NCBI GenBank assembly: GCA_039190745.1
Contig: JBCCXZ010000005.1
Span: 1-64,000, forward strand
Source of the DNA: Planctomycetota bacterium
GTDB lineage: Bacteria > Planctomycetota > Planctomycetia > Pirellulales > Lacipirellulaceae
DNA length: 64,000 nucleotides
Direction: 5' to 3'
The notes beneath the pieces are model-generated. The model made no database searches. It had not been told where the DNA came from and worked only from the letters and a program-made list of their open reading frames with translations. Both the position numbers and the translations under genes were made by a program. How positions within the stretch are numbered: the first letter of the stretch is position 1; every line of letters begins with the position of its first letter. This document shows, one piece after another, positions 9,383 through 49,413 of this stretch.

Positions 9383-12300
9383 ACAAACCGCCGCGCTCGA
9401 AGCGCGAGACCGGAGTGTTTCACTCGCCGCCGGGGCGGGTTGCGGCAAGACCTTTGTGCTCACCGAGCGGTACCTTTCGTACGTCGACCCCCGCGTGCTC
9501 TCGGCCACCGCCGACCTGCAAGAGCTGGTCGCGATCACCTACACCGACGCCGCAGCCCGGGAGATGCGCAGCCGTATCCGGGAGCGTTGCGTCGAAAGGC
9601 GACAAGCGGCAACCACCCCAGAAGAGCAACAAGCTTGGCAGAGCGTACTCCGCGGGCTCGACCGGGCGCGGATCAGCACGATCCATTCGTTCTGCGGCGA
9701 CGTGCTCCGGGCCAACGCGGTGCAGTTGGGGCTCGACCCCGGGTTCGAGATCCTCGAGCCCGCGTCGGCCGACCTGCTGAAACTCGACACGCTAGACCGC
9801 CACCTCCGTTGGCTCTTGAGCAAGGGCGACGAGGAGCTGATCGCGCTGGCCGCAAGACTCGGCCTGCACACGCTCCGGGGCGTCGTGCCCGGTTTGCTCG
9901 GCTCGGTCCACCAAGTCGCGGAGCGTTGGTTCGACGCCACGCCTGGCGAACTGCTGGAAGTTTGGGACGGCTACCGCTCCACCACGCTGCAGCAGACGCT
10001 GCGCGAGGAGCTGCTCTTAAAGCCGAGCTTTGAGGAGCTCCGCGAGATCGCCTCCGGCGGGCCCCGCGGCAACGGACCGCTGAACGAACGCCTCGCGGAG
10101 ATCGCCGACGTGATTGCGGCCATCGACTCGGGCCAATCTCTGGGGGAAGCGTCGGAGACGCTCGTCGAGCTAGCCCGCGTGCAGGGCGGCCCGGCGAAGA
10201 AGTCTGCCTGGGACGACGAAACCGACTACACACGGTTCAAGAACGCCGCCGCCGAAGTACGCAAACAGGCCGAGAAGGCCCTCGCCCTGCTCACGCCCGA
10301 CGACGACGCCCTGGAAGAAGCGGCCCAGACCGGGCTCGCTCTCATGAGGCTCGCGGTCCGCGTCGGCGACGAGTACGAGGCAATGAAGCAGGCCCGCGGC
10401 CAGCTGGAGTTTGACGACCTGCTCTCGCACACGCACCGGCTGCTGCACGACCAGGCCCACGCCGCAGCAAAGAAGCGGCTGCAGAACGGCATCCGGCTGC
10501 TGATGGTCGACGAGTTCCAAGACACGGCGCCGCAGCAGGTCGAGTTGGTGCAGGCGTTATGCGGGCCTGACTGGAAACAGTCGGGCCTGTTCGTGGTGGG
10601 CGACTACAAGCAGTCGATCTACCGTTTCCGCGGGGCCGAGCCGGAAGTGTCGGAGCAGCTCCGCGCGTCGCTCCCCGGCCCGGGCCGGCTGTCGCTGACA
10701 ACCAACTTCCGCAGCCAGCCGGCGGTGCTGGACTTTGTGAACCGGCTGTTCGAAGAGGAGTTTTCCGGGTATGAGCCGCTGCGAGCCTTCCGCCCGCAGC
10801 AGACCGACGGCCCGTGCATCGAACTGCTGTGGTCCAGCCCCGCGGCCGGCTCAGCCGATTCCAGCACCGCCGCGGAGCGGGCCGCCGAGGCCCGTTGGAT
10901 GGCCCGGAGGGTCGCCGAGCTGATCGCTTCAGAACGGCCGATCGTCGCGGAGCCCCACGCGGGAGCCCCGCGGGCCGCCCGGCCCGGGGACGTGGCGGTG
11001 TTGATGCGGTCGCTGTCGGACGCGCCGGTCTACGAGGCCGCGCTCCGCGAGGCGGGGCTGGACTATTACCTCGCCGGGGGGCACACCTTCTACGCGCAGC
11101 AAGAAGTGTTCGACGTGCTGAACCTGCTGCGGTCGGTTGACAGCCTGACCGACGAAGTGAGCCTCGCCGGCGTGCTGCGGAGCCCGTTCTTCTCGCTCGA
11201 GGACGAGACGCTGTTCTGGCTGGTCGAATCGCGGGGTTCGCTTTCGCGGGCGGTGGGCGAGGCCTCGCCGCCGACTCAACTGAGTGCCGTAGAGGCCGAC
11301 AACTTCACGCGGGCCGCGGCGGTGCTCGCCGACCTCCGCCTGGCGAAAGAGCGGCTGAGCGTTGCCGGCCTGTTGGATCGGGCGTTGTCGCAGACCGGCT
11401 ACGACGCGGCGCTGTTGAGCGAGTTCCTGGGCGAACGCAAGCTCGCGAACCTCGACAAGCTCCGCGAGCAGGCCCGGCAGGCCGACCGCCTGCGGCCGGG
11501 AGATCTGCCCTGGTTCATCCGCCAGCTGCAGGAGTTTGTCGACCGGCCGCCGAAAGAGGCGCTCGCGGCCACGACGACCGAGGGCGACTCGGTCCGCGTG
11601 ATGACCATCCACCACGCCAAGGGGCTGGAGTTCCCCGTGGTGGTTGTGCCGGACCTCGGCCGCGGCAACCGGCTGGGCGCCACCCGGCCAGTGTTCGACG
11701 CGGAGCTCGGGCCGCTGGTCTCCGCGAAGCGGAAGGGCGCCAAGACCCCGCTCGACTGGCTGCGCAAGCGAGGCCAGCAGCTCGAACGCGAAGAACGGGT
11801 GCGGCTCATGTATGTCGCCTGCACGCGTGCGGCGGACTACCTCATCCTGTCCGCGAGCGCTTCCGCTGCGGAGAAAGCGTCGAGCGAGTGGCTCTCGCTG
11901 CTCGCAAAGCGGTTTGACCTGTTCCAAGGTCAAGGCGCCCCAGGAGCCGAGATGGGGGGGCCGGTTCCCAAAATCACGGTCACGACCGCAGAGCCGCCGC
12001 GCTCGGGCGCGGCGCGGCCAGAATCCCGGGCGTCGCTCCGGAAGGCGGTCGACACGGCGCTCCAGAGCAAGAAAACCCGCCACGGCGACCCGGCGGCTCC
12101 TGTGGCGGTAGATCCCAACGCCCGGCGACGGTTTTCGTTCTCGCTGCTCTCGGGCGCGTTGGTCGACAAGGCCGACGAGCCTAAGTTGGCCGACCCACCG
12201 CGCAGCAACGGCGTCGACCCGCTCGCGCTCGGGCAGCTTGTGCACGGCGTGCTCGAACGGATTGACTACCGGCGGCCCGACTTGCACCAGAGCCTGTGCG

Positions 12301-42026: not shown

Positions 42027-43670
42027 ATGAGAGGCCTTTTGATCGCGGCAGTTTTTGCTTTTTTCTCCGTCTCCGTCGCAACCGCACAGACCTACCGCTA
42101 CGAAGCCGAGAACGGCTCGCTCGCCGGCAACGGCACTTCCATCCAGAACAACGGCGGAGCCTCCGGTTCCCAGTACGTCCGCTTCAACAGCGGCGACGCG
42201 GGCAACGCCGTGACCGTCAGCCCCACCGACCTCCCCGACGGTCTCTACGAATTGTGGGTCGGCTTCCGCACCCCCTTCGGCGAGAAGGGCTACTACTTCG
42301 ACGTCGGCGGCGTCTCCGGCAGCGGCATGTTCGACGCCTCCTCGGCGTTCAGCGAAGACCTCGCCGGGCTGTTCGCCGTCGACGGCGGCCTCGGCGCCGC
42401 CTCGGTCTCCCAGTTCTGGGGCTACCACGACATCGACTTCCTCGAGTTCCGCCCCTACCAGCCCACCGAAGTGCTCCCGGTGCCGGCGACGCTGGTCAAC
42501 GAGAACGCCGACCTCCGTACCCGCCAGCTCATGCGTTACCTCACCGACATCTACGGCGAGAAAACCCTCAGCGGCCTGCAGCACGACGTCCACTCCGGAA
42601 CCAACACGTTCCCGCCGACCAGCTACGCCTCGAAGTCGGGCGGGCTGCTCCCCGCCGTCCGCGGCTCGGACCTCATGAACTACTCGCCGACCCGCGTGCA
42701 GTTCGGCCAGTCCGCCCACGACGAGGTCGAAGACACCATCGCCTGGGCCCAGCAAACCGGCGGGGTCGTCACCATGATGTGGCACTGGAACGCCCCCGAC
42801 GACCTCATCAACCAGCCCGGTATGGAGTGGTGGCGCGGCTTCTACACCGACTCCACCACGTTCGACCTCGCCGGCGCCCTCAGCAACCCCGGCGGAGCCG
42901 ACTACGGCAAGATCATCAGCGACATCGACGCCATCGCCGTGCAGCTGCAGAAGCTGGAAGACGCCAACATCCCCGTCATCTGGCGCCCGCTGCACGAGGC
43001 CGAAGGCGGCTGGTTCTGGTGGGGCGCCCACGGAGCCGACAACTTCAAGGCCCTCTGGAACATCACCTACGACCGCCTCACCAACCACCACGGCCTCGAC
43101 AATCTCATCTGGGAATTCACCGACCTGGGCGACCCCGAGTGGTACCCAGGCGACGACGTCGTCGACATGATCGGCTTAGACATCTACACCGACCCCACCG
43201 ACAACATGAGCGGCCCGTGGCTCGACGCCCTCGAGCGCTACAACGGCAACAAGCCCATCGCCCTCTCCGAGTCCGGCACGCTGCCCGACGCCGACGAGAT
43301 GGAGCAGTGGGGCATCGCCTGGAACTACTTCGCCACCTGGAACGGCTTCGACAGCGCCTTCACCGCCCAGCAGCTGCAGGAGACCCTCGGCGACGAAGAC
43401 ATCCTCACCCTCGACGAACTCCCCTGGTTCCCCTGGGCCAACACGCTCCCAACCGACGGCGACTACGACAACGACGGCGACACCGACGTCCACGACCTCC
43501 TCTGGTGGCAACGCTGGGACGGCTCCGCCGAAGGCCTGTCGAGCATCGAGGACAACGCCGGACAAGGCTCCACGGCAGCGAATGTCGCGACAACCCCCGA
43601 GCCAACCGCCGCAGTCCTCGCCGTGCTCGCCGTAGCCGGCTTCGTGCACACCCGCAGACGCACGCTCTAG
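42027..43670 (+). CDS. Secreted GH26 beta-mannanase with N-terminal CBM-like domain, dockerin-like module and PEP-CTERM anchor
   Basis: Signal peptide, YEAE, WHWNAP, WRPLHEAEGGWFWWG (acid/base), YPGDDVVD..GLDIY, IALSESG (nucleophile), GDYDNDGDTDVHDLLWWQR, then TPEP+TM+RRR. Confidence 0.92.
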   Translation: MRGLLIAAVFAFFSVSVATAQTYRYEAENGSLAGNGTSIQNNGGASGSQYVRFNSGDAGNAVTVSPTDLPDGLYELWVGFRTPFGEKGYYFDVGGVSGSGMFDASSAFSEDLAGLFAVDGGLGAASVSQFWGYHDIDFLEFRPYQPTEVLPVPATLVNENADLRTRQLMRYLTDIYGEKTLSGLQHDVHSGTNTFPPTSYASKSGGLLPAVRGSDLMNYSPTRVQFGQSAHDEVEDTIAWAQQTGGVVTMMWHWNAPDDLINQPGMEWWRGFYTDSTTFDLAGALSNPGGADYGKIISDIDAIAVQLQKLEDANIPVIWRPLHEAEGGWFWWGAHGADNFKALWNITYDRLTNHHGLDNLIWEFTDLGDPEWYPGDDVVDMIGLDIYTDPTDNMSGPWLDALERYNGNKPIALSESGTLPDADEMEQWGIAWNYFATWNGFDSAFTAQQLQETLGDEDILTLDELPWFPWANTLPTDGDYDNDGDTDVHDLLWWQRWDGSAEGLSSIEDNAGQGSTAANVATTPEPTAAVLAVLAVAGFVHTRRRTL

Positions 43671-43696: not shown

Positions 43697-44004
43697 ACTT
43701 CTCAGACCGTCCATTAGACGCCGATGGACATGCGCGCTTACCCCCACGTCACTGCTGAGGTTCTAGATACTTCTGGAAGTTTGCCACTGCGAAGTGGCAC
43801 GCCGAGAAGGAGCAGAGTTCGACCGAACCGACCACAAACCACCGATGTGTTTGTGTACGACCGATTCAGCGCCTGCGCGGGCGATTGCCTAGGCGGACAA
43901 TCCCGCGAAGCCATCCGCTACTTGCAATCTGATTGCATGTGGGTACGATATGCGTGAACGAGCCAACCGTGCTCACGTACCTTGTATCTACGGCAGCGGA
44001 ACCG

Positions 44005-44808: not shown

Positions 44809-45360
44809 ATGCACCCTGTTGCAACAGAAACCATCACCGCCTGGAACGCAGAAACGGTAGCTGATTTCGCCGCCGGCAGCCCTGACATCCTGGTGCTGAA
44901 ACGACCCCCACTAAACAACCTCGGCCCGGTTGTCCAGGCAGGGCGCATCCACGAGTTCCTGGCGACCGTCCGTCGCCAGAAGATCGCTCTAGAGGTCCGA
45001 GCCGGGCTGGGCGAGTTTCGAATCAGGTCGCCCGAATTGGCGTCCGACCTCATCAACCTGCTAACTTCGTTCCTCGACCAGTTTGACCTGCCGGAAGCCA
45101 GGCTCCGGATCGAGATCTCTCGGTCGCAGCCGTGTCCAAAGTTCCACAGCGATAACATCCACGTACGGATGGTCACCACCTACGTCGGCCCAACCACCGA
45201 GTACCAGTACGCCGGAGAGAGCACCACCCACGCCGCCCCGCTGCAAGGGCTTGTGTTCCTCAAAGGGAACCATCACCCCACCCACCACGACACGGTGCAC
45301 CACCGCTCGCCAGAGGTACCGGCCGGCGAAAAACGCTTATGCGTGGCGATCGACTACTAG
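44809..45360 (+). CDS. DUF1826 family protein
   Basis: CPKFHSDNIHVRMVTTYVGPTTEY, FLKG, VHHRSP, KRL match DUF1826 motifs; SD AGGAGG upstream of ATG 44809. Confidence 0.85.
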   Translation: MHPVATETITAWNAETVADFAAGSPDILVLKRPPLNNLGPVVQAGRIHEFLATVRRQKIALEVRAGLGEFRIRSPELASDLINLLTSFLDQFDLPEARLRIEISRSQPCPKFHSDNIHVRMVTTYVGPTTEYQYAGESTTHAAPLQGLVFLKGNHHPTHHDTVHHRSPEVPAGEKRLCVAIDY

Positions 45361-45526: not shown

Positions 45527-45748
45527 GTGAACGACGACCACGCCTTCCCTTCCTCGTACGAGCAGTGGCGGCACTGCATCGAAGGCATCGGCAAGATACG
45601 ACTGACGCCGAGTTACCTCAGCAAGCGCCTGTCAGAACTACAGGATGAGAAGAATGCAAATACCCGTGAGTTTTCTAGGCTCTACGGAAACGATCGCCTC
45701 CAGCGAACCATCGAGTGGTTCCGTCGGGCGGCTGACGAATTGACCTGA
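45527..45748 (+). CDS. 73-aa small hypothetical protein
   Basis: SD GAAGGA before GTG; pattern P.SYEQWRHCI..I.LT..Y...RL..L.D...T..F..LYG......WF, which I recall beside DUF1826/COG0523 loci (unverified). Confidence 0.8.
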   Translation: MNDDHAFPSSYEQWRHCIEGIGKIRLTPSYLSKRLSELQDEKNANTREFSRLYGNDRLQRTIEWFRRAADELT

Positions 45749-46200
45749 GTAACTCGAACACAAGCGGCGCCAAGAGTTGCTTGCCGAGACGGTCACTAAG
45801 CGGCGTGCGGCAGCATAGACGCAGGTATCGCACGCAGCGTCGGGCCGCCCCTTCGTGCTTCGCTCACTCGCTGAAACAACTGGGTTCTAGTCAAGCGGAC
45901 GCGAGACTGCAGCGCCAGCTTTCCGGTCCAACACTCCTGCTGCAAGAAGAGGCTCGCGCCTACGGAGAAGCACCACCTGCCTCACATCCAGGCAGTCGAA
46001 CCGGACGCACACTAAGTGGTCCAAACACCTACTCAGCAAGGCTTGCCTAGCGAGATGGAAATCGAATCAAGTCACTGCAGTATCCGTAGAACAGTAGTGG
46101 CAAGTAGCGATGATCAAAAAATTATGATTATCGACAATTAAGAAAGCTTGCGGCGAGTGACGAGGGATGCGAGATTGGTTTGCAGAATTGTGAGCCTACT

Positions 46201-46674
46201 ATGAACGCATCGCCTCTCAGGCGTTCTATCACCGCCCTGCTTGTCACGCAGCTTGCCCTCCTGGGACTCACAGGAGAGTCGCTCCACTATTTGCTGGAGC
46301 CGAGCAACCCTCTCACCGAAGCGGGACAGCAACAAGCGGACGGCGAAAAGCACGTCCACTTCCACCGTCACGGCGCAGACTACCATTGGCACGCACACGC
46401 CGTACCCTCAGTAAGCCGAGCGTCAGCGTCTGAGAATGTCAGAGAGGACGGCGTCGCCGATGCCGTCCGGATGCCGGCATTCTGCCACACACAGCACGCC
46501 TGCCCGGTCCTGAGCGCCCTCTCGGCACTCGAGGACGCGACATCGCAACACTCTGTCTTCGAACAGGTTGCTAATCATCAGCGGTTGCTGCGGAGCCAAG
46601 CTTGGCTCTGCTGGGATTGCGATCATTCTCGTGCCAACACCGCACGCGGACCGCCGGCTACCCCCTTCGGATAG
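46201..46674 (+). CDS. His/Cys-rich DUF2946-like leader protein with C-terminal RGPP motif
   Basis: N-terminal hydrophobic segment, HVHFHRHGADYHWHAH, CHTQHACPV, and ARGPP five residues before the stop. Confidence 0.75.
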   Translation: MNASPLRRSITALLVTQLALLGLTGESLHYLLEPSNPLTEAGQQQADGEKHVHFHRHGADYHWHAHAVPSVSRASASENVREDGVADAVRMPAFCHTQHACPVLSALSALEDATSQHSVFEQVANHQRLLRSQAWLCWDCDHSRANTARGPPATPFG

Positions 46675-46866
46675 CTCTGTTCTCGGTCCACTTCGATGAG
46701 TTTCTCAGGGTCGGTACGCGCTAAGCCCGTCCACTCCAGCCCACATCCGGGCGTAAGTCGGTCGACGAAGCAGCTTAGCGTTCCCGCCACTCACTCTCGC
46801 TGAAACGCACTCGGCCGCCCCCGCCAATGTGTGGCGGTGCGCCATCGCCTAAGGAAAACAACTCTC

Positions 46867-47796
46867 GTGAAGACTCGAATCCCTATCTTCTGTTTACTCG
46901 CCTTCGCGGCCGCCTGCGCAGGCTTCTCCGGCGAAGCCCACTCCCACGGCCTGCAGATCCTGCTCGACTCGGACGGGTCAGGCGGCCTGCTAGGCGGGTA
47001 CGCGAGCGGCCCGCACCCACGCGTGACAGGCGTCCAGATCGACGAGGCGCTGTTGTGGGACGAACGCGTCCGCTACGCACCGGACTACCCCAAAGACCTC
47101 GCGAACGGCATACCGGGAACCCTCCTGCCGGGCGACCCGCCAGTAGAGATCACTTGGCAAGGGCACAAGTACCTGATCGAGTACCACCCCGCCGAGTGGG
47201 ATACCCAACTCGAGTGGCGGCTGGCGCCAGAGTCGAGCGACTTCCCAGGCGTCACGCCGTTGCGCGGCGCCTTCGAGGAGATCAACGCACACTACGGCGA
47301 CGGAACGCTCGACCTCCGTTTCAATCTGCAAGGGCCGCTGCGGCGATGGGACGGAGGAGCGTTCACGCCCGCGACCGACGCAAGCGTGAGCCTCACTAGC
47401 CAAGACTGGCCCGAACCAGACGACGGATTCTGGTACGTCGAGTTGCACGACGAAGTGACGTCCTCAACCGGTGTTGTCTCCACAGTTCCTTACGATATCT
47501 CGTGGTCCGGCTACGACGACGGCGAGCACTGGCATTACCTGTGGACCCTCAACGGCCCCGACGAGCTAACGCCCGCCCCCGAGGGCGTGTACCTCGTCGA
47601 GTTCACAATCAGCAGCGGAGACGGCGGCGTGGAGAGCCACCCGATGTGGCTGCTGCTGCGGCAGGGCCTCGACGCTAACTCGGCGACCTACCTTGCCGCG
47701 GAGGCGGCGGCAATCGCAGCGGTCCCCGAGCCCGCCGCACTCGCCGTCGCAATGCTCGGCGTCACGGCGCTGACTGCACGCCGGCGGAGGGCCTAA
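46867..47796 (+). CDS. PEP-CTERM surface protein, putative metal-binding
   Basis: AAGGA then GTG 46867; signal peptide AHS|HG; EHWHYLW..APEGVY; VPEP+TM+RRRR. Confidence 0.88.
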   Translation: MKTRIPIFCLLAFAAACAGFSGEAHSHGLQILLDSDGSGGLLGGYASGPHPRVTGVQIDEALLWDERVRYAPDYPKDLANGIPGTLLPGDPPVEITWQGHKYLIEYHPAEWDTQLEWRLAPESSDFPGVTPLRGAFEEINAHYGDGTLDLRFNLQGPLRRWDGGAFTPATDASVSLTSQDWPEPDDGFWYVELHDEVTSSTGVVSTVPYDISWSGYDDGEHWHYLWTLNGPDELTPAPEGVYLVEFTISSGDGGVESHPMWLLLRQGLDANSATYLAAEAAAIAAVPEPAALAVAMLGVTALTARRRRA

Positions 47797-47799
47797 ACC

Positions 47800-48495
47800 A
47801 TGGGGCCCCCGCTCCGCCGGGCCGGGTTCACCCTTGTCGAGCTGCTCGTGGTGATCGCCATCATTGGAGTGCTCATCGCCATGCTCTTGCCTGCGGTCCA
47901 GGGCGCGCGGGAAGCCGCGCGCTCGGCCGCCAGCAAGAACAACCTGCGGCCGATAGGCCTCGCGGTGCAGATGTACTGCGACACGCACGACGGCGTGTTC
48001 CCCGAACTCGACCACAGCTACGGCGAAGACTCACGCTCGTGGATTTTCTCGCTCGAGCCTCATGTTGAGTCGGTCGACGCGATCCGCATCTGCCCGACCG
48101 ACGAGTTTGGCGATGACCGGTTGAGGCTCGACATGTCGAGCTACGTCCTGAACGACTACCTCGTTGGCGAGGTCGAGTGGGGCGTGCGCGACCGCGACAA
48201 GCTGCAAGCGACTACCAGGACCCTGCTCGCCATGGAGATCGCCGACCCGCCTCAGGACGCTCACGGCCAACCGGACGTGACCGCCCAGTACGAGCACGCC
48301 CACGCTAGCGCGTGGTTCACGCCCGGGGCGATCACCTTCGGACTGGTCCAAGCGAACGTCGAGAAAGACATCTGCCTCGACCGGCACAGCACCGGTTCGC
48401 ACTACCTGTACGTCAGCGGCCACGTGAAGACCATCTCTGCCGCGCAGGTCCACGAATGGATCGATCAACCGCACGATTTCGCGCGTCCGCAGTGA
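47800..48495 (+). CDS. Short DUF1559 prepilin-type protein
   Basis: [48 protein letters not shown]9-SG variant of H-X9-DG; starts 3 nt after the upstream stop. Confidence 0.92.
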
Positions 48496-48522
48496 CGCGC
48501 TCCCTAGAAAGGACAGGAAACA

Positions 48523-49413
48523 ATGACGACGCGCACGTGCTACGCGTTCGCGGTGATGGCGGCCCTGGCAGCCGCCCCAACCGTGCTGGGCCACGGGACA
48601 CCGGCGGATGTAACGGCTGTCGGCGGCCAATTGACCATCACCGGCAACGCCCCAACTACGCCCGGCGGTTTCACCGACCAGCTCTTCGCCGAGACAATTA
48701 CCGGGTCGGCCCTGATACCCGTTTCGCAAGATCGGCTCTTCACAGACTTCCCAGGCGTCGACATCACCGGCATCAGCGTCGGGTCGGGACTCTGGATCGA
48801 GCCCCTCATGCTCGACGCAGACCCGGGGCCCGGGGTCTCGCCGAGGGGCGTCTGGTGGTGGTCGCCGATCTCGGAGGAAGTTGAGCCGCTGGACGAAGAG
48901 TTCCGTATCGACCTGATCTCAGCCCGAGGCTTTGGGGTCACAAGCCTTGCCCCTGACGAAGCGATCGCCGAGCCCCTTGAGATCATGGAGCCCCTGGCCT
49001 CAGACCTCAACAACCACCGCCACCCACTCTATTACGTCGTGCCTAACGGCTCTGTAGCCCCGACCGGGGCATTTGCCTTCTTCGCAAAGCTCACCTCGCC
49101 GACGTACGATTCGTCTGAACCCTTCTTGATCGGCCTCAACCACGGTCTCGGGGCGACTCAGTTTGTCGAAGCCGTTCAAGCGATCAACGAAGCGGCGGGG
49201 AGTGTTCCGGGCTTCTACGACCCCGACCCCGACGGCGACGTAGCCGACCTCATGGCGTGGCAGAGGACCGACGGGACAACGCAATCGCTTACTAGTTGGG
49301 AAACCTACTTCGGCGAAGGGGCTTCTCCGATAGCGGCGGCCATCGGCGTGCCCGAGCCCTGCTCAGTAGTTCTGATGCTCGTCGGGACATTGTGTTTCCG
49401 TTCGCGCCGATAG
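48523..49413 (+). CDS. PEP-CTERM surface protein, putative metal-binding, with degenerate dockerin-like module
   Basis: SD AGGA; signal peptide VLG|HG; TDFPG; NHRHPLY..APTGAF; DGDVADLMAWQR; VPEP+TM+RSRR. Confidence 0.88.
   Translation: MTTRTCYAFAVMAALAAAPTVLGHGTPADVTAVGGQLTITGNAPTTPGGFTDQLFAETITGSALIPVSQDRLFTDFPGVDITGISVGSGLWIEPLMLDADPGPGVSPRGVWWWSPISEEVEPLDEEFRIDLISARGFGVTSLAPDEAIAEPLEIMEPLASDLNNHRHPLYYVVPNGSVAPTGAFAFFAKLTSPTYDSSEPFLIGLNHGLGATQFVEAVQAINEAAGSVPGFYDPDPDGDVADLMAWQRTDGTTQSLTSWETYFGEGASPIAAAIGVPEPCSVVLMLVGTLCFRSRR

Follow-up and report, generated by a model that had tools for sequence, protein, structure and literature searches.

The question raised by this locus is what a short reading frame with a histidine cluster and a nearly terminal RGPP motif does in front of three genes for envelope proteins and, if it is a metal-sensing arrest leader, which metal it reads. 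The four genes lie between positions 46201 and 49413 of a stretch of 64,000 nucleotides from a Planctomycetota bacterium (contig JBCCXZ010000005.1, positions 1 to 64,000), referred to below as the window and, together with the rest of its genome, as G000; other compared genomes carry G-numbers, compared loci L-numbers and contigs C-numbers. The genes are real and are conserved as a unit. Leaders of this His type hold a fixed place before a DUF1559 gene and two paralogous PEP-CTERM proteins, with a clean split from sister cassettes whose leaders carry a CxxC motif. The explanation that we favour, tentatively and at a little less than an even chance, is that a CruR-like leader stalls at RGPP and that expression of the three envelope genes would continue until the leader binds its metal, which is probably nickel or copper and less probably zinc.

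The first gene (46201..46674, + strand) encodes the His-type RGPP leader of 157 amino acids (aa), with a hydrophobic segment at residues 9-25, a His cluster at 51-66, an HxxHxCxxL motif at 96-104 and, after a 44-residue spacer, RGPP at 149-152, which is its C-proximal RAPP-like motif. It is followed by an intergenic spacer of 192 nucleotides (nt) (46675..46866, +), the presumed switch site, where computed folds place a GC hairpin just 5′ of the ribosome-binding site (RBS). Next come PEP-CTERM protein A (46867..47796, +; 309 aa), with a predicted mature N-terminal histidine or His1 (HSHG), HWH221-223 and a family profile E of 1.1e-9, and a short DUF1559 prepilin-like protein (47800..48495, +; 231 aa; PF07963, PF07596, TIGR02532), with a G/FTLVE cleavage motif and conserved (D/E)HxH, RH and GH. 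The last gene encodes PEP-CTERM protein B (48523..49413, +; 296 aa), a paralog of protein A with a predicted mature His1 (HGTP), HRH165-167 and a profile E of 2.1e-10.

An earlier note on this DNA had described four co-directional genes with a spacer of about 190 nt, gaps of 3 and 27 nt, and HxH-type motifs in all four proteins. We find the same, with all four on the + strand, a first gap of 192 nt and HxH in each protein (HVHFHRH and HWHAH in the leader, HSH25 and HWH221 in protein A, HAH166 in the pilin, HRH165 in protein B). Some of its other calls need adjusting: the RGPP described as terminal is C-proximal, with five residues still after it; the PEP-CTERM proteins show VPEP, a hydrophobic stretch and a basic tail, but score just below the curated cut-offs (19.1 vs 20.7 and 13.7 vs 16 bits); and the DUF1559 protein matches PF07596 (E 2.3e-10) only over model positions 1-62 of 268, so that it is a short variant, with both PF07963 and PF07596 over cut-off. 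A putative promoter of the leader's own (46126..46176, +; TTGCGG-17-GAGATT, with an AT-rich stretch 5′ of it) is conserved in the same-genus ortholog while the flanks diverge; a sigma-70 scan did not call this element, and its promoter function is inferred.

The leader itself would be exported or anchored by its N-terminus, judging by hydropathy only (1.64 over residues 9-25), and it has no match in Pfam or NCBIfam at E<=1, DUF2946 included. At the sensor position, where the CruR family has CxxC, stands CPVL; a second candidate, CWDC (137-140), was rejected as sensor, being only 8 residues from the motif and not conserved in the 61%-identical same-genus ortholog. Six-frame translation of the window genome gives 46 open reading frames (ORFs) that end near RGPP or RAPP, three of which combine a hydrophobic N-terminus with a His/Cys motif at that distance. 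A homolog search with the single leader sequence gave no matches, and a profile of three leaders found 83 homologs among 1.84 billion proteins. R[GA]PP lies within 15 residues of the end in 77 of the 83 (RGPP in 75, RAPP in 2), a count that tells less in favour of arrest than its size suggests, since the search profile contained RGPP and the figure is partly circular; the remaining six are one protein of 6112 aa and five short or partial matches. The spacing is free of this circularity: 44 residues separate the sensor motif from the Arg of RGPP/RAPP in 76 of the 77. None of these 77 has CxxC 38-52 residues upstream of the motif, and the Cys position of the aligned HxxHxCxxL holds Cys in 67, Thr in 7, Ser in 2 and Val in 1, while H55, H57, H64, H66 and H99 are invariant over 66 aligned rows.

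PF11162 (DUF2946) matches none of 66 His-type leaders, that of the window included. In ESM features the window leader nevertheless adjoins a DUF2946 cluster (0.96), and hhalign matches the His-type family at 96% with a PF11162-passing leader, CPLL standing opposite CGLC. Taken on these comparisons, the leader is CruR-like by anatomy and not a DUF2946 member by the defining tests; it appears as a distant protein of the CruR/DUF2946 type that forms a separate His-type subfamily, and it is very probably a metal-sensing arrest leader. The comparison with CruR and CutF, the synteny with a pilin-like and two His-bearing PEP-CTERM genes and the link to metal homeostasis that the earlier note proposed stand, while the absence of CxxC and the separate subfamily had escaped it.

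The closest described system is CruR (Bp2923, DUF2946/PF11162), from the cruR-bfrG operon of Bordetella pertussis. Both leaders have about 150 aa, an export-type N-terminus, a metal motif some 45 residues before a C-proximal RAPP-like motif, the first position in the operon and a long spacer behind them (192 nt in the window). In CruR, 45 residues separate CxxC from RAPP, and this spacing is required (45 +/- 1-2; PMC9426467); arrest at RGPP/RAPP, CruR included, has been shown in vitro (PMC12992588). The window leader differs in its HxxHxCxxL and His cluster, in having no CxxC and no PF11162 match, and in its cargo, which consists of pilin-like and PEP-CTERM proteins where CruR precedes a TonB receptor; in the window genome, 95% complete, a search for such receptors found none.

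His/Cys metal sites have been proposed for two Streptomyces arrest peptides (PMC12992588). Among 28 of the upstream ORFs (uORFs) listed in that work, most carry CxxC and none carries HxxHxCxxL by eye, and its RGPP tables may hold His-type rows. Its source data (Fig. 4) report DUF1559 as enriched behind RAPP uORFs (112 RAPP vs 68 AAPP, adjusted p 1e-31), a pairing that our cassette shares; the row carries no discussion and no assignment of a metal or a cassette, and the available main text makes no mention of DUF1559. The claim of the earlier note that the arrangement is undescribed therefore holds for the cassette, which we did not find in the literature on DUF2946 arrest, zinc PEP-CTERM proteins, DUF1559 in planctomycetes or RAPP uORFs, and has to be given up for the pairing of leader and DUF1559. 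As far as the available sources go, this is a real, conserved regulatory cassette of the CruR kind, uncharacterised, whose RAPP-leader/DUF1559 pairing was already present in that source table.

Conserved synteny in relatives, named by the earlier note as a check, is indeed found. A scan of genome contigs returned two loci (L005 and L006, the latter in G031) out of 44 candidate stretches, both with the four genes in the window's order between unrelated flanks and with leaders 26 and 35% identical to that of the window, which keep the His cluster and RGPP. Because the order is the same between different flanks, and because only three of the 46 RGPP/RAPP ORFs qualify, the gene set goes beyond chance. 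More widely, the leader profile matches in 41 of 120 genomes of the window genome's family. We compared 41 of 46 matches (leaving out G000, G031, which is L006, G541, G531 and G462), and three loci with a second leader raised the number of leaders to 44, of which two loci are truncated by contig ends and one, L079, is in the His class by default, its motif being atypical. Of 21 His-type leaders, 19 have a prepilin motif no more than 350 nt behind them, all 21 have one inside 3 kb, and 18 are followed by two PEP-CTERM genes of one family; the corresponding figures for 23 CxxC-type leaders are 20, 21 and 16. Overall, the pilin motif lies 85-276 nt behind 39 of the 44 leaders. Phylum-wide searches matched 4 and 3 of 401, figures that are no measure of absence, with only 8-9 candidates scored per genome.

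Both cassette types are present in G000, whose CxxC-type paralog cassette lies on contig C12, with the CxxC paralog of the leader at 10352-10849, and in G464, where His-type and CxxC-type cassettes stand back to back around one short divergent spacer and the CxxC side runs into ZepA (L053). In four other loci (L046, L047, L050 and L143, from G514 and G476) a His-type leader precedes a lone DUF1559 gene with no PEP-CTERM partner, and one of these adjoins insertion-sequence genes. The third leader of the window genome (CxxC, RGPP; L088:4109-5810, contig C12) lies inside a ZigA-MerC operon and heads an ArsP_1/SO_0444-like permease and a MoxR module.

The prepilin being the most constant gene behind the leaders of both types, arrest could instead report export or pilin assembly capacity, as in SecM or ApdP, with the histidines incidental. 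In line with such a monitor, a DUF2946-passing CxxC/RAPP leader precedes by 400 nt a Flp/Tad pilus operon that encodes a pilin with HAH (G428, L098:1446-9725). We nevertheless take the monitor to be highly improbable, given invariant His/Cys ligands at a fixed distance and CxxC leaders that are found before ZepA and a permease as well, with a Zur-like box as their alternate. Alternatively, the cell may express the leader as a small membrane protein, or the leader may be a relic that has lost its control over the window cassette. The usual order is leader, pilin, PEP-CTERM, PEP-CTERM, from which the window departs with a PEP-CTERM gene first, a minority form with a long-branch pilin and strongly diverged cargo; moreover, the closest, 61%-identical leader ortholog (L090:222-1465 and L063, G001) heads a different cargo, with an FmdE-domain protein first, followed by a PEP-CTERM protein of 424 aa, a full-length DUF1559 protein and another PEP-CTERM protein. 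Since the window leader has lost neither RGPP nor the spacing nor the ligands, and the same holds for L005/L006, where the four genes have stayed together amid other neighbours, we regard this alternative as very unlikely.

Returning to a working arrest switch, its steps can be sketched by analogy with CruR and CutF. The ribosome is predicted to stall at RGPP, with the nascent chain held in the Sec channel and HxxHxC facing the periplasm, and the downstream envelope genes would likely be on while the metal is short. Metal binding to the His-rich sensor would end the arrest, and transcription would then stop within the 192-nt spacer. On their sequences, the two anchored beta-sandwich proteins may catch the metal through their mature N-terminal His and HxH, and the pair may work with the His-bearing pilin-like protein. 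Expression in shortage, the CruR direction, is probable, and it is favoured because sister leaders head uptake genes. An intact rho gene is present in the window genome (contig C7); a second one (G000:C23:49231-50709) has an in-frame TAG near its C-terminal third and may be an assembly error or a pseudogene.

Which metal would be read is a harder question, and the sister cassettes offer a first guide. ZepA/All3515 (NF040463), a secreted and Zur-controlled PEP-CTERM scavenger of Anabaena (PMC10957091), is found in CxxC cassettes; proteins A and B do not match NF040463, nor does any protein of the window genome. Among the best 25 of 34 ZepA matches (L146-L170), an RGPP leader lies directly upstream in 14, a Zur-like box instead in 6 and neither in 5, and only one of the 14 has both; all 14 of these leaders are CxxC-type and none is His-type. 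From this distribution, leader and Zur-like box behave as alternative zinc switches before ZepA. Directly upstream of His-type leaders a Zur-like box was found in none of 22 (best score 8.4 vs 18.5-28.4 for the training sites, and 2.0 before the window leader), and upstream of 24 CxxC leaders there are one clear and two borderline cases. The AT-rich stretch at 46110-46140, tried as a Zur-like box, does not fit the matrix, and a de novo motif search upstream of the leaders gave nothing convincing.

The cargo is divided in the same way. Among proteins with intact N-termini, the cargo starts with HxD in 19 of 22 CxxC cassettes and in none of 29 His-type ones, which begin with His-small-small in 25 of the 29, a bare His1. 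ZnuE, ZnuF and ZnuG (PMC12445094) are anchored surface proteins which, like the cargo, have an N-terminal His motif and, some 140-150 residues from it, an HxH; the HxD of the ZnuE type is present in CxxC-type cargo and absent from that of the window and of all His-type cassettes, and no profile match links the families. Other secreted proteins with a mature His1 bind Ni or Cu (PMC12537917); of these, DUF4198, DUF6702, Ang-1 and Ang-2 share the mature N-terminal His and a beta-rich nature and are proposed to feed Ni/Cu to permeases, but the cassette proteins have no sequence or clear fold match to them, are PEP-CTERM anchored and are paired with a pilin-like gene. On this sequence evidence zinc is slightly disfavoured and another metal likelier, because the ZepA leaders are all CxxC-type, the His-type leaders have no box, their cargo lacks HxD, and G000 and G464 have cassettes of both types. 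As a best guess within this reading, nickel would account for about half, copper for about a quarter, and cobalt or another metal for the rest. As regards nickel, a HupE/UreJ-2 gene lies co-directionally upstream of the His-type leader in 2 of 18 loci, both from one genus; 15 of the 21 genomes with a His-type leader have nickel superoxide dismutase, against 40 of the other 99, a difference confounded by kinship and habitat; and no literature linking FmdE to a nickel regulon was found.

The surroundings of the window cassette point to zinc. The palindrome TGCAAT-N3-ATTGCA occurs within two mismatches at five sites of the window genome, none of them inside a gene. Two of the sites separate a Fur-family gene from that of a ZigA-like GTPase, a third precedes another ZigA-like operon, a fourth lies 71 nt upstream of the C12 paralog cassette, and the fifth is at 43922. 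A Zur-like box is also found near 9 of 24 ZigA loci of other genomes. The site at 43922 (43922..43938, unstranded; TTGCAAT-N3-ATTGCA), among the 5 top-scoring of the genome, is a putative Zur (Fur-family) operator and heads a thioredoxin-like gene, a DUF1826 gene (44809..45360, +; PF08856 E 4.3e-20) and, up to 45748, a 73-aa ORF with no family match (45527..45748, +). In L100 a homolog of the DUF1826 protein is surrounded by DksA-like, HisI, L28 and Fur-family genes; the box is present there too, and a look-alike of the 73-aa ORF comes after the homolog. The box at 43922 may or may not reach the cassette.

Several observations weigh against a CruR-like switch with a signal other than zinc. This box is 2.3 kb upstream of the cassette, which is co-directional with the zinc-island genes and not separated from the box by any called + strand terminator, and all three qualifying leaders of the window genome are co-directional and within 2.3 kb of a Zur-like box. 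An N-terminal His1 is present in ZepA as well, which is a zinc protein (PMC10957091). In seven homologs Thr replaces the last Cys of the sensor motif. Sixteen of the His-type pilins form a single clade, so that the cargo contrast rests on about two lineages; since the His-type label takes 3 changes when placed on the pilin tree, and may have arisen only once, the whole His/CxxC contrast rests on few independent events. Regarding the output, the C>G bias of rut-like sites is absent after the leaders (27 of 44 vs 92 of 184 controls, p 0.13), and blocking the stall footprint frees no downstream RBS (41 loci, mean change -0.006; 3 up, 4 down; in the window from 0.63 to 0.44).

With the same switch and capture module, the signal could accordingly be zinc, the leader acting as a second zinc sensor with another set-point in a Zur island that starts at 43922. 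Besides the island genes and the boxes before the three leaders and the C12 paralog, the ZepA genes of the sister CxxC cassettes would agree with it. His clusters also bind zinc well. The island context, however, is not kept in L005, L006 or G001, and the leader comes with its own conserved promoter-like element; together with the His-type leaders without a box, the ZepA leaders that are never His-type and the cargo without the HxD of ZnuE-type proteins, this makes zinc a possible signal, if on the unlikely side.

The opposite logic is represented by CutF of Rhodobacter capsulatus (10.1101/2025.02.05.636593), a DUF2946-type nascent exported sensor with a proline-rich stall, which frees an RBS hairpin on copper excess and so shows the same architecture working in that direction. 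Metal excess, that of copper, would then induce the stall and turn on the cassette, whose surface proteins would trap the toxic metal outside; His1 sites bind Cu(II), and in ESM features protein A weakly resembles a 'metallo-mystery four-Cys' cluster (0.90). In silico, the 41 loci gave no sign of a hairpin switch of this kind, and the sister cassettes travel with uptake genes, so that we consider this quite unlikely.

Turning to the proteins under control of the proposed shortage switch, A and B are remote members of the family to which the PEP-CTERM cargo of the other cassettes belongs (E 1e-9 and 2e-10), characterised by one invariant His within HxH and a G-x-Y strand, and an exosortase-family gene is over cut-off in the window genome. 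A typical member is predicted confidently as a beta-sandwich (predicted local distance difference test, pLDDT, 95), from which the family fold is taken, AlphaFold giving a pLDDT of 34 for protein B with 11 alignment rows. Against PDB structures this sandwich has no clear match (Foldseek best E 2e-3); VIA gives its best Z of 6.7 (root-mean-square deviation 4.1, 136 aligned) to fimbrial/Ig-like sandwiches, and a PDB sequence search found nothing. The choice-of-anchor M and TIGR03769 domains, which we take to be the link to ZnuE-type HxD/HxH proteins, have profiles that do not match the cargo.

Cassette pilins keep (D/E)HxH/E, RH and GH. When the pilin domain of relative G537 was co-folded with its two PEP-CTERM cores, two Zn included, the score was 0.44 with a best control of 0.14, contact agreement was at least 34% and partner pLDDT at least 76; being made for a CxxC-type relative, and not for the proteins of the window, this model counts for less here. 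Of 157 solved pairs 116 attain the mark, and of 215 mismatched pairs 2 do so, 18 of the 157 and both mismatches standing at <=0.60. The model lends weak support to a surface assembly of pilin and PEP-CTERM proteins.

A broader reading, which we consider unlikely, is that the family runs two parallel arrest switches on one scaffold, the CxxC form replacing Zur for zinc and the His form serving nickel, each with a capture module co-evolved with its sensor, in cells without TonB receptors. If true, this leader would be the first arrest peptide to sense nickel, and the cells would capture metal by a route that needs no TonB. So far, copper is the only metal and CxxC the only motif for which a metal-sensing arrest leader has been shown, and two natural leaders that share the 44-residue ruler but differ in their ligands, both in one cell, offer a direct way to test how a nascent chain tells metals apart. 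The cassette also offers a testable role for one subfamily of the very large and unexplained group of DUF1559 pilin-like proteins, and another for an unnamed family of PEP-CTERM beta-sandwich proteins. Elsewhere in the window, the enzyme encoded at positions 42027-43670 resembles GH26 mannanases and carries both CBM35 and a PEP-CTERM-like tail.

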